Under the pieces are notes generated by a model. It saw only the letters and a list, made by a program, of their open reading frames with translations, was not told the origin of the DNA and did no database searches. Below, piece by piece: positions 1,459-21,272 of a stretch of 21,272 nt of DNA (the first letter of the stretch is position 1; the number at the start of each line of letters is the position of its first letter). The stretch is taken from the IMG/VR virus record IMGVR_UViG_2617270964_000007, positions 1 through 21,272 of that record; one strand, 5' to 3'. The position numbers and the translations under genes were made by a program. This DNA is from a virus. Its lineage: Duplodnaviria; Heunggongvirae; Uroviricota; Caudoviricetes.

Positions 1459-2619
1459 TTACCCCATATTTAAATACACCACGTTCTCCTCTTGTGCCGT
1501 ATTTGTGCCATTGCGACTTATAATCGCATCGATTTTGCTTGCGTGCTCGGTGAGATGCCCGGCTGAAAGGTGGGCGTATCTTTGAACCATTTCGAGAGTT
1601 TCCCATCCTCCCATCTCTTTAAGTGCAAGAAGAGAGACACCGGACTGAACCAGCCAGCTTGCCCAGGTATGCCTCAGATCATGGAAGCGGAAGTTACTAA
1701 TGCCTGCCCGCTTTAACGCTCCCTTCCATGCCTTGTTGCTGTCGGTTCTCATCTTCCTTACCGCTGCTGTTTTTGTTCCGTCGCTTCGGTAGGCAGGTTT
1801 GGTGTGGACAAATACCCATCTCTTATGGAGCCCCTGCTGTTTTCTTAATATCTGGCATGCGGTTTCGTTAAGAGGAACTCCGATCGCATTGCCAGCTTTT
1901 GTTTCATCAGGGTGTATCCATGCCATTTTCTTATCCAGATCGACCTGTGACCACTCAAGGTCTGTAACGTTGGAACGGCGAAGGCCTGTCGTGATTGCAA
2001 ACATGACCACAGGGAAGAAGTGAGGAGCAATTTCTGCAAACAGGCGCTTCGATTCCTCCTCTGTAAGCCATCTGATGCGTCCATTCTTAACGCGTGGTGT
2101 TGATATTTTGGGTGCCCTGTCAAGCCATCCCCATTCAACAGCCATATTGAGAATGGCGCGAAGTATTGCCAGATGCCTCGTCTTCGTTCCTTTGCTTGCA
2201 AGCTTTGGTTTATACTCCGGCACCGGATTGCCAAGTCGCAAACACCTGTCCCGGCTCATCTCCCAGTTCAGGCGATGGCGGCGGTTTTCCATCCCATCTA
2301 CCGCCTCCATTATTTTTTCTGTTGTTATGTCAGAGAGAATGGCTTCTCTGAAGTGCAACATCCAGAACGATATAATGCTCTTGTCATCATCAATGGACTT
2401 CTTATCCGATTTCTCACGCAGCCACCGTATGCAGGCTTCCTTGAATAGCTTTTTCGGTGATTCCCCGAGATTTTTTACTCTCCACGCTTCTGCTTTCAGA
2501 CGATCGTGAAGTTCTTGCGCTTGCCTTTTGTCCGATGTTTCAAGAGAGCGTCTAACTCTTGATCCATCTGGCGCGACGAAATCGCAGTGCCACGTGCCAC
2601 CGCGTAGTTTGATTGACAT
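1459..2619 (-). CDS. int: Tyrosine-type site-specific integrase (P22/CP4-6 IntF-like), 386 aa
   Basis: ATG at 2619 preceded by AGGAGG. C-terminal catalytic region HDLRHTWASWLVQSGVSLLALKEMGGWETLEMVQRYAHLS carries the tyrosine-recombinase HxxR...Y signature. Position next to a tRNA att site. Confidence 0.9.
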   Translation of the reverse strand: MSIKLRGGTWHCDFVAPDGSRVRRSLETSDKRQAQELHDRLKAEAWRVKNLGESPKKLFKEACIRWLREKSDKKSIDDDKSIISFWMLHFREAILSDITTEKIMEAVDGMENRRHRLNWEMSRDRCLRLGNPVPEYKPKLASKGTKTRHLAILRAILNMAVEWGWLDRAPKISTPRVKNGRIRWLTEEESKRLFAEIAPHFFPVVMFAITTGLRRSNVTDLEWSQVDLDKKMAWIHPDETKAGNAIGVPLNETACQILRKQQGLHKRWVFVHTKPAYRSDGTKTAAVRKMRTDSNKAWKGALKRAGISNFRFHDLRHTWASWLVQSGVSLLALKEMGGWETLEMVQRYAHLSAGHLTEHASKIDAIISRNGTNTAQEENVVYLNMG

Positions 2620-12993: not shown

Positions 12994-13434
12994 ATGAAAA
13001 AACTAACCTTTGAAATTCGATCTCCAGCACATCAGCAAAACGCTATTCACGCAGTACAGCAAATCCTTCCAGACCCAACCAAACCAATCGTAGTAACCAT
13101 TCAGGAACGCAACCGCAGCTTAGACCAGAATAGAAAGCTTTGGGCTTGCCTTGGTGACGTCTCTCGTCAGGTTGAATGGCATGGTCGCTGGCTGGATGCA
13201 GAAAGCTGGAAGTGTGTGTTTACCGCAGCATTAAAGCAGCAGGACGTTGTTCCTAACCTTGCCGGGAATGGCTTTGTGGTAATAGGCCAGTCAACCAGCA
13301 GGATGCGTGTAGGCGAATTTGCGGAGCTATTAGAGCTTATACAGGCATTCGGTACAGAGCGTGGCGTTAAGTGGTCAGACGAAGCGCGACTGGCTCTCGA
13401 ATGGAAAGCGCGATGGGGAGATCGGGCAGCATGA
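12994..13434 (+). CDS. ninB: NinB (Orf-family recombination mediator), 146 aa
   Basis: ATG at 12994; the track ORF begins 18 nt upstream at a different start. The translation MKKLTFEIRSPAHQQNAIHAVQQILPD… matches lambda NinB as I recall it. Confidence 0.85.
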   Translation: MKKLTFEIRSPAHQQNAIHAVQQILPDPTKPIVVTIQERNRSLDQNRKLWACLGDVSRQVEWHGRWLDAESWKCVFTAALKQQDVVPNLAGNGFVVIGQSTSRMRVGEFAELLELIQAFGTERGVKWSDEARLALEWKARWGDRAA

Positions 13435-13958
13435 CTATCAAATCAAATACGCCAGCACACGACAAGGACTGCTGGCAAACGCCGCTTTGGCTTTTTGATG
13501 CACTGGATATTGAGTTTGGATTCTGGCTGGATTCGGCAGCGAGCGACAAAAATGCTCTGTGCGCTCACTGGCTAACTGAGGCCGACGATGCGCTCAATTC
13601 TGAGTGGGTAAGCCACGGTGCAATCTGGAATAACCCACCGTACAGCAATATCAGGCCGTGGGTGGAAAAAGCCGCTGAGCAGTGCATACAACAGCGACAG
13701 ACGGTAGTGATGCTTGTGCCAGAGGATATGTCTGTCGGATGGTTCAGCAAGGCTCTGGAGAGTGTTGACGAAGTTCGCATTATCACTGATGGACGGATTA
13801 ATTTTATCGAACCATCGACGGGGCTGGAGAAGAAGGGAAACAGCAAAGGCTCCATGCTGCTGATTTGGCGACCGTTCATCAGTCCTCGACGGATGTTTAC
13901 TACCGTATCCAAAGCGGCATTGATGGCGATCGGGCAGGGTGTCAGGAGGGCTGCATGA
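13431..13958 (+). CDS. Phage DNA N6-adenine methyltransferase (Dam family, NPPY motif)
   Basis: ATG at 13431 overlaps the ninB stop. It contains the catalytic motif WNNPPYS and the conserved WQTP motif near the N-terminus, typical of the phage Dam-family MTases. It sits between ninB and ninC, which are adjacent in lambda. Confidence 0.75.
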   Translation: MTIKSNTPAHDKDCWQTPLWLFDALDIEFGFWLDSAASDKNALCAHWLTEADDALNSEWVSHGAIWNNPPYSNIRPWVEKAAEQCIQQRQTVVMLVPEDMSVGWFSKALESVDEVRIITDGRINFIEPSTGLEKKGNSKGSMLLIWRPFISPRRMFTTVSKAALMAIGQGVRRAA

Positions 13959-14800
13959 TAAATGTCGTTAGTTTCTCAGGTGGCAGGACGTCAGCATATT
14001 TGCTCTGGCTAATGGAGCAAAAGCGACAGGCAGGTGAAGACGTGCATTACGTTTTCATGGATACAGGGGCAGAGCACCCTAAAACATATGAGTTCATCCG
14101 AAATATCGTCAGTAACTGGAAAATAGACTTACATTGCCTTCGTGTAATACCTAATCCAGAAATGGGGAAGGCCAGTAGTTATGAAGAGATAGGTGACAAT
14201 GATATTGGTCCAGATCTTATACCGTGGAAAAGGATGTTAAATAAATACGGACATCCATATATCGGCGGTGCGTTCTGTACCGACAGAATGAAGTCTGTTC
14301 CATTCACCAAATATTGTCAGGAAAAGTTTGGGAAAGGAAATTACATCACATGGCTTGGCATTCGCACAGATGAACCAAACAGGCTTAAAAGGGCTAATGG
14401 TTTTCGGTACCTGGCTGATATAAGCGATTTTGACAAACAGGATGTGCTTGATTGGTGGAGTGGGCAGAAGTTTGATCTTGGCATACAGGAGCATCTTGGT
14501 AATTGTGTTTTCTGTATAAAAAAAAGTATGCAAAAGGTTGCGCTGGCAGCCATGGATGAGCCAGAACTTGCAGATGCATTTATCAACATCCTTGATACAG
14601 AAATAAAAACAGGAAAGGAACCGGTTATGTATCGAGGGAATAATACACTTAAATCACTGATTGCCTTGTTTAGTGATATATCAAGAGATGAGTTAGCCTC
14701 AAGAATGACATCAATGCGACAGTATGATTCAGGTTCGTGTTCTGAATCATGTGAAGCATTTTCATGTCAGCTTGGATTTAATTTTGAGGATGCGGCATGA
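13955..14800 (+). CDS. ninC: NinC, PAPS-reductase-like PP-loop protein, 281 aa
   Basis: ATG at 13955 with AGGAGG upstream. PP-loop motif SFSGGRTS near the N-terminus and cysteine clusters CVFC and [10 protein letters not shown] near the C-terminus. The N-terminus [20 protein letters not shown] resembles lambda NinC as I recall. Confidence 0.8.
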
Positions 14801-15335: not shown

Positions 15336-15515
15336 ATGCTTAGCCCATCCCAATCCATTCAATACCAGAAAGAAAGCGTCGAGCGAGCTTTAACGTGCGC
15401 TAAATGCGGTCAGAAGCTGCATGTGCTGGAAGTTCACGTGTGTGAGCACTGCTGCGCAGAACTGATGAGCGATCCGAATAGCTCAATGTACGAGGAAGAA
15501 GACGATGGTGATTAG
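15336..15515 (+). CDS. ninF: NinF-like small cysteine-rich protein, 59 aa
   Basis: The translation MLSPSQSIQYQKESVERALTCAKCGQKLHVLEVHVCEHCCAELMSDPNSSMYEEEDDGD carries CxxC…CxxCC (a zinc-ribbon-like pattern) and resembles lambda NinF as I recall. It falls below the track length cutoff. Confidence 0.6.
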   Translation: MLSPSQSIQYQKESVERALTCAKCGQKLHVLEVHVCEHCCAELMSDPNSSMYEEEDDGD

Positions 15516-15897
15516 CCGATACGGAAAAATAACGTTTAAACATTTTCAAGACAATCCAACATGGGCTGCTGCGGCTGGATATGACTTTAATTATTTTGAT
15601 TGTCTGTCAGTCGCATGTATTGCAACTACCAATGTTGCTAACAACATAATCGATGAATTCTTGGATTTTCCAGACTATCAGGTCAGAGAGTTGCCTGCAT
15701 TTTTTGTGAAAGTATCTGTTGCTACAGCTCTGTTATTTATTTTGTTATTCGCATATCCATTGCTTGCCGTATTTGTTTATGTGAGATGCAAGCACTCACA
15801 AAATGAATACACCGGAGAGCATACCGATATTACCAGCCAAAATATGCGAGTGTGGTTGAGGAGATGCCAAGAGAAATGGGGGAGAAGTCATGGCTAA
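15505..15897 (+). CDS. Hypothetical membrane protein, 130 aa, one predicted transmembrane helix, moron-like
   Basis: ATG at 15505 overlaps the ninF stop, with GAGGAAG upstream. The hydrophobic segment FFVKVSVATALLFILLFAYPLLAVFVYV is followed by a basic stretch. The gene is AT-rich and has no counterpart in the lambda nin region as I recall it. Confidence 0.5.
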   Translation: MVISRYGKITFKHFQDNPTWAAAAGYDFNYFDCLSVACIATTNVANNIIDEFLDFPDYQVRELPAFFVKVSVATALLFILLFAYPLLAVFVYVRCKHSQNEYTGEHTDITSQNMRVWLRRCQEKWGRSHG

Positions 15898-16539: not shown

Positions 16540-16724
16540 ACGCCACAATTCAAACGATACCAGAGCTTCTTATCCAGACACGAGGCAATCAGACCGAAGT
16601 GGCGAGGATGCTTTCCTGCGCAAGAGGAACAGTGCTCAAGTACAACCGAGACAGCAAAGGCGAGCGTCATGTAATAGTTAACGGCGTCCTGATGGTCAAA
16701 CAGGGCAAGAGGGGAAGACGATGA
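16536..16724 (+). CDS. ninH: NinH-like small DNA-binding protein, 62 aa
   Basis: The translation …GNQTEVARMLSCARGTVLKYNRD… resembles lambda NinH (…GNQTEVARRLKCSRGTVRKY…). It is translationally coupled between rusA and Q. Confidence 0.65.
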   Translation: MNATIQTIPELLIQTRGNQTEVARMLSCARGTVLKYNRDSKGERHVIVNGVLMVKQGKRGRR

Positions 16725-17344
16725 GACTCGAAAGCGTAGCTAAATTTCATTCGCCAAAAAGCCCGATGATGAGCGACTCACCACGGGCTACGGCTTCTGA
16801 CTCTCTTTCCGGTACTGATGTGATGGCTGCTATGGGGATGGCGCAATCACAAGCCGGATTCGGTATGGCTGCATTCTGTGGTAAGCACGAACTCAGCCAG
16901 AACGACAAACAAAAGGCTATCAACTATCTGATGCAATTTGCACACAAGGTATCGGGGAAATACCGTGGTGTGGCAAAGCTCGAAGGAAATACTAAGGCAA
17001 AGGTACTGCAAGTGCTCGCAACATTCGCTTATGCGGATTATTGCCGTAGTGCCGCGACGCCGGGGGCAAGATGCAGAGATTGCCATGGTACAGGCCGTGC
17101 GGTTGATATTGCCAAAACAGAGCTGTGGGGGAGAGTTGTCGAGAAAGAGTGCGGAAGATGCAAAGGCGTCGGCTATTCAAGGATGCCAGCAAGCGCAGCA
17201 TATCGCGCTGTGACGATGCTAATCCCAAACCTTACCCAACCCACCTGGTCACGCACTGTTAAGCCGCTGTATGACGCTCTGGTGGTGCAATGCCACAAAG
17301 AAGAGTCAATCGCAGACAACATTTTGAATGCGGTCACACGTTAG
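16721..17344 (+). CDS. Q: Late-gene antiterminator Q, lambda-type, 207 aa
   Basis: The translation MRLESVAKFHSPKSPMMSDSP… with the zinc-binding CRDCHGTG…CGRCKG region matches lambda Q as I recall. It is followed by the lambda pR'/qut/tR' sequence. Confidence 0.9.
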   Translation: MRLESVAKFHSPKSPMMSDSPRATASDSLSGTDVMAAMGMAQSQAGFGMAAFCGKHELSQNDKQKAINYLMQFAHKVSGKYRGVAKLEGNTKAKVLQVLATFAYADYCRSAATPGARCRDCHGTGRAVDIAKTELWGRVVEKECGRCKGVGYSRMPASAAYRAVTMLIPNLTQPTWSRTVKPLYDALVVQCHKEESIADNILNAVTR

Positions 17345-19614: not shown

Positions 19615-20157
19615 ATGAACTACCCAACCGTTGTTAACGATATAGATTTCAGAGACCTAATTTTTGTAGCAAACAACGATCCGGTTACAGATTCTTTTAT
19701 GGTGGCAAAAGCATTTGGAAAGCTGCCGAAGAACGTGGTTCGTGACATTGAACGAACCATAGAAGCTTGCCCTCCTGAGTTTGATACAAAGCTCAACTTT
19801 GAGCTTTGCTATAAAAACAATGAGTTACAGAATGGTAAGCCGCAAAAATTCTACCGTCTCCGCAAGGATGGGTTGATGCTTTTGGTTATGTCCTACACCA
19901 AAAAAGAAGCAATGCGTATCAAAATTGCTTACATCAACGCATTTAACTGGATGTACGCCATGCTTCAGGTTGGTCATCGTCAATTTGAAGAAGAGAGAAA
20001 TGCCGTAATGCTGGAGTACATGAAAGAGAAGGATGTTGCCAGCATGTCAGGGCGCCTGCTTAATCGCTGGGGAAAAATTAAGAAGCCTCAGCTACTGGCG
20101 AGAATTGAACGCCTTGAACAGCACGGGCAAACCGTAATCCCCGGACTCACTAATTAA
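19615..20157 (+). CDS. rha: Rha-family phage regulatory protein, 180 aa
   Basis: The N-terminal domain pattern …VTDSFMVAKAFGKLPKNVVRDIERT…GKPQKFYRLRKDGLMLLVMSYTKKEAMRIKIAYINAFNWM matches the Phage_pRha family signature as I recall it (VxTDSxxVAxxFGKxHKNVLRDI…). ATG at 19615. Confidence 0.7.
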   Translation: MNYPTVVNDIDFRDLIFVANNDPVTDSFMVAKAFGKLPKNVVRDIERTIEACPPEFDTKLNFELCYKNNELQNGKPQKFYRLRKDGLMLLVMSYTKKEAMRIKIAYINAFNWMYAMLQVGHRQFEEERNAVMLEYMKEKDVASMSGRLLNRWGKIKKPQLLARIERLEQHGQTVIPGLTN

Positions 20158-20452
20158 CGGCAGTACAGCGAAACAACCCAAGCCAGTAAGTGGGGAAATA
20201 ACACTGGCAGCCACTGAAAGATGAACCTCCTGCATTATGGCAAAAAAGATTCTTTGTGGTGGCGGACTGATGGAAAGACATCGGTTATTGCAGAGACCAT
20301 TCAATGAGTGGTCTCGACAATGGCTTATACCCTACACGGGATAACTTAACTGATATCCCCACAAGCGGATAAAGAGGTCCCTCAATGTCAGGAATCTACT
20401 TTTAGTCCTAGTAATGATGAACTAGATATCAGTTGAGTCGCTTGGGTGGTGA

Positions 20453-20661
20453 TTACGATTCTGCTTCAAACTCAGAAATTAGTTGATGAACACGTTCAGT
20501 ATATGATGGGTTAGAACCTAGAAACTCTTCCACTGTCTGAATGGTTTCATCACCCTCCCATTCAAAATGGCTCACAGGCGACGAATGACCAACCCTGACT
20601 TGGTAGGAGCCATTGTCCAATTTGTCCAGGAATATATAAGTTTCATTATCATGACCTGTAT
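20453..20661 (-). pseudogene. 3' fragment (about 69 codons) of an unidentified minus-strand gene, with the IS1 end abutting its upstream boundary
   Basis: An open frame without an in-window start, …HYHTGHDNETYIFLDKLDNGSYQVRVGHSSPVSHFEWEGDETIQTVEEFLGSNPSYTERVHQLISEFEAES, ends at the TAA complementary to 20453-20455. It runs open up to the IS1 terminal inverted repeat at 20662 and continues into IS1 sequence, so any 5' part must lie beyond the IS1 copy. Confidence 0.4.
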
Positions 20662-20676
20662 GGTAATGACTCCAAC

Positions 20677-21180
20677 TTATTGATAGTGTTTTATGTTCAG
20701 ATAATGCCCGATGACTTTGTCATGCAGCTCCACCGATTTTGAGAACGACAGCGACTTCCGTCCCAGCCGTGCCAGGTGCTGCCTCAGATTCAGGTTATGC
20801 CGCTCAATTCGCTGCGTATATCGCTTGCTGATTACGTGCAGCTTTCCCTTCAGGCGGGATTCATACAGCGGCCAGCCATCCGTCATCCATATCACCACGT
20901 CAAAGGGTGACAGCAGGCTCATAAGACGCCCCAGCGTCGCCATAGTGCGTTCACCGAAAACGTGCGCCACAACTGTCCTCCGTATCCTGTCATACGCGTA
21001 AAACAGCCAGCGCTGACGTGATTTAGCACCGACGTAGCCCCACTGTTCGTCCATTTCCGCGCAGACGATGACGTCACTGCCCGGCTGTATGCGCGAGGTT
21101 ACCGACTGCGGCCTGAGTTTTTTAAATGGCGGAAAATCGTGTTGAGGCCAACGCCCATAATGCGGGCGGTTGCCCGGCAT
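20677..21180 (-). CDS. insB: IS1 transposase InsB reading frame (expressed as the InsAB' fusion by -1 frameshift)
   Basis: The translation …[53 protein letters not shown]… is the IS1 InsB sequence. Confidence 0.88.
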
Positions 21181-21272
21181 CCAACGCCATTCATGGCCAT
21201 ATCAATGATTTTCTGGTGCGTACCGGGTTGAGAAGCGGTGTAAGTGAACTGCAGTTGCCATGTTTTACGGCA
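21099..21272 (-). CDS. insA: IS1 InsA (C-terminal portion; 5' end beyond the window)
   Basis: Reverse-complement translation gives …[18 protein letters not shown] ending at the TAA complementary to 21099-21101. The A6C frameshift window TTTAAAAAAC is present on the minus strand near 21118-21127. Confidence 0.7.

Follow-up and report, generated by a model that had tools for sequence, protein, structure and literature searches.

Two kinds of described systems are closest to the locus studied here, i.e., IS1 copies within prophages of E. coli and Shigella and the so-called morons of lambdoid and P22-like phages. When inserting, IS1 normally duplicates 9 bp of its target and sometimes 8 bp. The element is classically polar in both orientations via Rho-dependent termination, and the antiterminated (Q-modified) polymerase of lambdoid phages reads through Rho-dependent polarity signals. 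Morons, in the concept of Hendrix and Juhala, are independently transcribed genes that are inserted between core phage genes.

Within the window, i.e., the whole analysed stretch of 21,272 nt, we find an ordinary insertion of a known element, IS1, into an accessory gene of a prophage. Our account as a whole is probably correct: a simple and recent IS1 transposition into codon 10 of a cargo gene, with the rest of the prophage past IS1 located on another contig.

The end of the window (20662-21272, minus strand) comprises the first 611 of the 768 bp of an IS1 copy. Several complete E. coli genomes carry copies annotated as 'IS1-like element IS1B family transposase', to which the window copy is 100% identical over these 611 nt. 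Read from position 20662, the sequence GGTAATGACTCCAACTTATTGATAGTG... is the IS1 terminal inverted repeat. The repeat of about 23 bp (GGTAATGACTCCAACTTATTGAT, 20662-20684) is the same as the end of an annotated full IS1. The full copy of E. coli 1223 shows the same first bases, is 768 bp long and has ...GTTGGCAGCATCACC at its end; a complete copy at our locus would end at about 21429. In a three-way DNA alignment with two IS1-free prophages, homology extends up to 20661 and is absent from 20662 on. That is, repeat sequence, identity with the full copy and the homology break all confirm the start of the inverted repeat at 20662, which an earlier note on this DNA had claimed.

IS1 is entered at its right inverted repeat and its transposase genes run leftward, i.e., in the same direction as the truncated small gene described below. 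The insB' frame (20677-21180, minus strand), a 167-aa ORF that encodes the DDE transposase part of the InsAB' frameshift product, matches PF03400 (DDE_Tnp_IS1) and NF033558 (transpos_IS1; 9.4e-42). The 3' part of insA (21099-21272, minus strand; 33-aa ORF at 21099-21200) is cut by the contig and window end. In the full copy, the joined transposase CDS covers IS1 nt 16-713, which correspond to 20677-21374 in window numbering, and is annotated with a programmed frameshift. The locus thereby shows what is expected for the IS1 family, namely insA together with an insB' DDE transposase and a programmed -1 frameshift. No intrinsic terminator is predicted on either strand of the visible 611 nt of IS1.

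Compared with IS1 in E. coli and Shigella prophages, the locus is thus similar with regard to the identity of all visible nucleotides, the canonical terminal repeat and the insA/insB' organisation, and further in its AT-rich target (ATATATAAGTTTCATTATCATGACCTGTAT) and in a gene that is disrupted at a precise boundary. It is only the insertion site that appears to be new, since it is found in 0 of 5426 complete E. coli genomes. Given IS1 biology and the sequence, we predict that the 9 bp GACCTGTAT (20653-20661) would recur as target duplication at the far IS1 end if the transposition was a simple one.

The frame that is interrupted by IS1 lies on the minus strand, has its stop at 20453-20455 and stays open as far as IS1 and into it, in agreement with the earlier description of a gene fragment that runs straight into the element. 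As read from the sequence, it continues for 19 codons into IS1 until a TGA at 20720-20722. Between this in-frame TGA and an internal TTG at 20620, there is no ATG, GTG or TTG start. The source annotation calls just a 40-aa internal ORF at the remnant. The intact allele is provided by EH01-18-04-A and BY63, where the protein starts with MNSKQIFYRN/TGHDNE... (the slash marks the IS1 position, which is inside codon 10); the intact 78-aa protein reads MNSKQIFYRNTGHDNETYIFLDKLDNGSYQVRVGHSSPVSHFEWEGDETIQTVEEFLGSNPSYTERVHQLISEFEAES. The window (20453-20661, minus strand) still contains codons 11-78 with the stop as well as 2 nt of codon 10; the 69 residues counted before correspond to 68 complete codons plus these 2 nt. 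Over the compared part, this remnant matches the EH01 allele with 100% identity. Lost from the window copy are residues 1-10, which form most of the first predicted beta-strand (E2-11 in the structure model), the ATG, a Shine-Dalgarno sequence (GAGG) located 8 nt before it and the upstream region. Since start codon, Shine-Dalgarno sequence and first predicted beta-strand are removed, the small gene is, judging from its sequence, inactivated by IS1.

IS1-free relatives show how the region is organised without the element. The stretch 20158-20661 is present in full in 12/5426 complete E. coli genomes with 98-99% identity (megablast). Two of these genomes, EH01-18-04-A and BY63, are annotated here: rha is followed by an opposite-strand 78-aa hypothetical protein (WP_097365374.1 or WP_023565728.1), directly after which come a Terminase_2 small-subunit gene (terS), TerL, a DUF1073 portal, a head-morphogenesis protein, a DUF2213 protein and a Gp24-like cement protein. 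The ATG of terS is located 55 nt beyond the insertion point and 24 nt beyond the ATG of the small gene. This matches the alternative raised earlier that the interrupted gene might be cargo with its 5' part past IS1: the relatives carry the 78-aa opposite-strand ORF, and its first 10 codons as well as the RBS lie past the insertion. IS traffic is common in related prophages (IS100 and several IS3-family copies).

No terminase gene is found within the window. The identical end portion of the draft contig JHDG01000081.1 (GCA_000601135.1; 83,238 nt) includes the window; the contig runs only 2 nt (GT) past the window end and stops 613 nt into the 768-bp IS1. There is no terminase after rha because the contig ends inside IS1, a multi-copy repeat, such that the absence holds no information on the prophage itself. 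That is, the seeming lack of a terminase is an assembly artefact. The earlier statement that no terminase follows rha is therefore true of the window, while the conclusion drawn from it for the late region fails, given a contig end inside IS1 and a terS that follows in the relatives 55 nt further on.

The visible part of the prophage shows no decay. Its integration site is thrW (tRNA-Thr CGT, 1369-1444), with proA (1-1254) immediately upstream; the window starts exactly with the proA start codon. Over about 20 kb, we find full-length ORFs for proA, the integrase (1459-2619, minus strand), RecT, kil, cIII, N, cI, cro and cII as well as for O, a DnaB-type helicase, the nin region, Q, holin, lysozyme, Rz and rha. 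The Q antiterminator (16721-17344) is identical in sequence to lambda Q (UniRef name REGQ_LAMBD). Lysis cassette and rha are of a P22-like/lambdoid mosaic type. The nin region (13371-14800 and 15505-15897) contains a Dam-type methyltransferase, a gene of the PAPS-reductase family and a 130-aa ORF without Pfam family, the exact sequence of which occurs on 6 contigs only. The same early region of the prophage is also found on a Logan contig from run SRR1186660 with 99.985% identity (2 mismatches within 12,976 nt).

We also searched for the insertion in other genomes. No match spans the IS1 junction in any of the 5426 complete E. coli genomes (megablast), the left junction is absent from the GTDB species representatives (exact search), and none of 8592 Rha-bearing blocks carries IS1. 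The 40-aa remnant ORF is recorded on JHDG01000081.1 only, and a 55-aa TTG ORF is not on record. The insertion thus appears private to this strain or assembly. It is also probably recent, because no difference separates the remnant from the intact allele or the IS1 part from other copies (100% identity in both cases).

For the origin of the locus, we propose that a lambdoid prophage carried an acidic accessory ('moron'-type) gene of 78 residues and that an IS1 copy transposed into its codon 10. A simple insertion is its most likely form, as we infer. In this case, the far side would read ...AAGTTGGCAGCATCACC followed by GACCTGTAT and TTCGGTAAAAAATTTGCTTTGAGTTCAT, and then terS (ATGGCACTCACTGACAAGCAAGAAATG...), such that the terS start and its 24-nt upstream leader would be untouched. 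The remainder of the small gene would be placed on another contig together with the terS-terL-portal-head module, presumably because the assembler broke the contig inside the repeat.

A more drastic course of events would be an IS1-mediated deletion or inversion by which the small gene's 5' end and the whole packaging, head and tail region were lost or relocated, leaving a defective remnant. The contig shows nothing beyond IS1, which is compatible with such a loss, and IS elements commonly rearrange prophages. IS100 is found between Rz and rha in BY63 (locus L002, 3277-5078), and P22-like prophages carry copies of the IS3 family, i.e., in locus L006 (3340-4553 and 12282-13495) and in locus L009 (2026-3239, 5645-6858 and 12285-13498). 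The IS pair of L006 even brackets a gap: genes are missing there between the tail genes and the gene that follows DUF2560, the latter marking the terS position in sister loci. Nevertheless, we regard a rearrangement as rather unlikely for the window, given that its visible 20 kb are without decay, that simple transposition is the commonest outcome, and that an identical remnant next to an identical IS1 copy leaves little time for secondary events.

Two further explanations question the junction and the gene, respectively. The contig end could have been wrongly extended into an IS1 copy from elsewhere in the genome, since it lies inside a multi-copy repeat, where short-read assemblies are least reliable. 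We consider this highly improbable: the break falls exactly on the first base of the IS1 terminal repeat, as a true transposition gives and a chimeric join is unlikely to give, and in the IS1-free relatives the native sequence continues into unique terS DNA. Finally, IS1 might reside in intergenic DNA and the interrupted frame be a chance or decayed remnant rather than a gene, in line with the lack of any Pfam, NCBIfam, PADLOC or significant PHROG match, of a predicted promoter and of matches in 50,697 phage records and 72,556 plasmids. This is hardly credible in view of full-length homologues of 76-86 aa, a strong third-position substitution bias, the Shine-Dalgarno sequence GAGG, 8 nt ahead of the ATG (read from the sequence), and a confident structure model (pLDDT 85.8).

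Returning to a simple transposition, its effect on the late genes can be considered. On its way from a Q-dependent promoter to terS, late transcription would have to pass through 768 bp of IS1. If antiterminated polymerase reads through IS1 as introduced above, the insertion need not abolish late gene expression. By itself, it does not show that the prophage is defective.

The 78-aa ORF is, as the comparison with its homologues indicates, a real protein-coding gene, since full-length homologues exist and substitutions are concentrated at third codon positions (9/6/35 and 17/11/44 for codon positions one to three between homologues). Homologues with 60-79% identity keep the gene length, and full-length relatives can be followed down to roughly 30-40% identity (judged by eye). 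Conserved motifs of the family are ETYIFLD, VR.G.S.PVSHF.W and EEFL..NPSY..RV..L..EFE. Full-length alignment and motifs place the interrupted gene within the ORFan family of WP_097365374.1 and WP_023565728.1, with the window copy being without residues 1-10.

This family is very rare. It accounts for 13 clusters among 5.8 billion proteins and for 16 matches with E<=1e-3 among 1.84 billion representatives, and it is present on 14 IMG/VR contigs. Searches of 185,579 species-representative genomes, 50,697 phage records and 72,556 plasmids reveal no member. The earlier note had suggested searching the C-terminal fragment against protein databases. When run with the whole 78-aa protein, such searches reveal homologues but no usable match in Pfam, NCBIfam or PADLOC. 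More precisely, there is no Pfam family at E<=1, no NCBIfam and no significant PHROG match, and with regard to known anti-phage defence no PADLOC family at E<=1.

The 78-aa protein is acidic (pI 4.6; 14 D/E vs. 5 K/R) and its structure is predicted with confidence (pLDDT 85.8). The model was compared with the beta-beta-beta-beta-alpha topology of PUR repeats and Whirly-like proteins, where scores are modest for so small and simple a fold. The protein may be PUR-repeat-like and probably dimeric, which we take as a lead rather than a classification. It shows no sequence similarity to single PUR-repeat proteins such as Borrelia burgdorferi Pur-alpha (PDB 3n8b/3nm7), and no PUR family of Pfam is matched at E<=1. 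A sequence-profile search of the PDB provides only two matches with E of about 1, both to a portal protein and not to PUR, and a fold search of BFVD is uninformative. The wider Whirly-like fold, comprising PC4, Mam33/p32, MRP1/2 and Whirly, serves as comparison group for the predicted fold. The acidic character sets the protein apart from typical nucleic-acid binders.

The protein might be a new accessory factor of prophages with a PUR-repeat-like fold, perhaps a nucleic-acid mimic or single-strand binder, that acts on packaging or on a function of the host or of a rival phage, such that its loss through IS1 would change the phenotype of the lysogen. The suggested role derives from the tight divergent pairing of the gene with a Terminase_2 terS across unrelated head modules. 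We regard this proposal in its entirety as a long shot.

Concerning this pairing, every close or mid-distance homologue is divergent from a Terminase_2 terS, the start codons of the two genes being 24-31 nt apart, although the adjoining TerL are unrelated (17-20% identity) and the terS proteins are just 60-65% identical. An obligate linkage of the small gene to Terminase_2 terS was rejected, i.e., near-identical terS occur without the small gene, and distant homologues are found in other contexts, the most distant ones inside same-strand multi-gene cassettes. A terS that is 95-97% identical to that of the relatives is preceded by an opposite-strand ORF of 182 aa (locus L026, 933-1481), 192 aa (L033, 602-1180) or 62 aa (L036, 982-1170), or by none. 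These alternative ORFs have no family assignment; the 182-aa ORF has no Pfam match and its only PADLOC match is very weak (E 0.024).

Most simply, the site can be read as a variable cargo ('moron') slot where the packaging genes begin, and the slot upstream of near-identical terS looks like an uncharacterised cargo hotspot. Similar to morons of lambdoid and P22-like phages, the small gene is oriented opposite to the late operon and located between lysis/rha genes and terS, its G+C content of 0.41 is lower than the 0.47 of the window, and the contents of the slot differ, or are missing, among close relatives. In contrast to such morons, it shows neither a predicted promoter, nor a convincing terminator, nor a match to a known defence or anti-defence family. 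In detail, no sigma-70 promoter is predicted for the small gene in intact relatives, and the terminator scan near the gene yields only one weak terminator-like site, located 205 nt downstream in a relative.

Two side observations concern the DNA between and behind the divergent start codons. A palindrome (CTCTAGAG) is located within the 24-nt gap between the two ATGs (locus L001, 6532-6620). Furthermore, terS proteins with an overall identity of only 60% hardly vary in their first 30 residues (MALTDKQEMFCREYLIDLNATQAAIRAGYS), and the same is true of about the first 55 nt of the gene. Palindrome and conservation of the terS start could reflect a DNA-binding domain, a pac-related site or the promoter of the small gene.

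On the other side of the small gene, rha (19615-20157, plus strand) is the last late-strand gene before the region. It encodes a Rha-family regulator of 180 aa with the Pfam domains Phage_pRha and ORF11CD3, matching PHROG 518 (1.5e-81) and TIGR02681. A non-coding spacer (20158-20452) with short ORFs only separates rha from the 3' end of the small gene. It had been described before as containing nothing but very short ORFs, and this is what we observe: the longest ORF overlapping it has 70 aa and a TTG start.

The first about 216-242 nt of the spacer (about 20158-20390) are found in 2274/5426 complete E. coli genomes. P22, CUS-3, HK140, Kapi1 and further P22-like phages share this block with 92-98% identity, also when their flanking genes are different. 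Its predicted folding is unusually favourable, with z-scores of -4.64 (plus strand) and -3.2 (minus strand) for the spacer, and no Rfam family reaches its threshold there. The block may function as a cis-acting element, encode a small RNA or represent a conserved linker for recombination. In a P22-like prophage (locus L012, 10544-11132), the spacer is split by an inserted DUF551 gene into parts that correspond to 20160-20287 and 20305-20391 of the window, which argues against a single structural unit.

The only by-products of mild interest are the ORFan family, which is uncharacterised, and the conserved spacer behind rha. Both the very rare 78-aa family with its confident predicted fold and the variable cargo slot upstream of Terminase_2 terS are possible, modest leads for the mining of prophage accessory genes. 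The main value of our results is one of annotation hygiene. If a contig stops within an IS copy, a prophage can seem truncated although its missing genes may be located on another contig. 'Defective prophage' calls from draft assemblies should check for contig ends that are bounded by IS elements.
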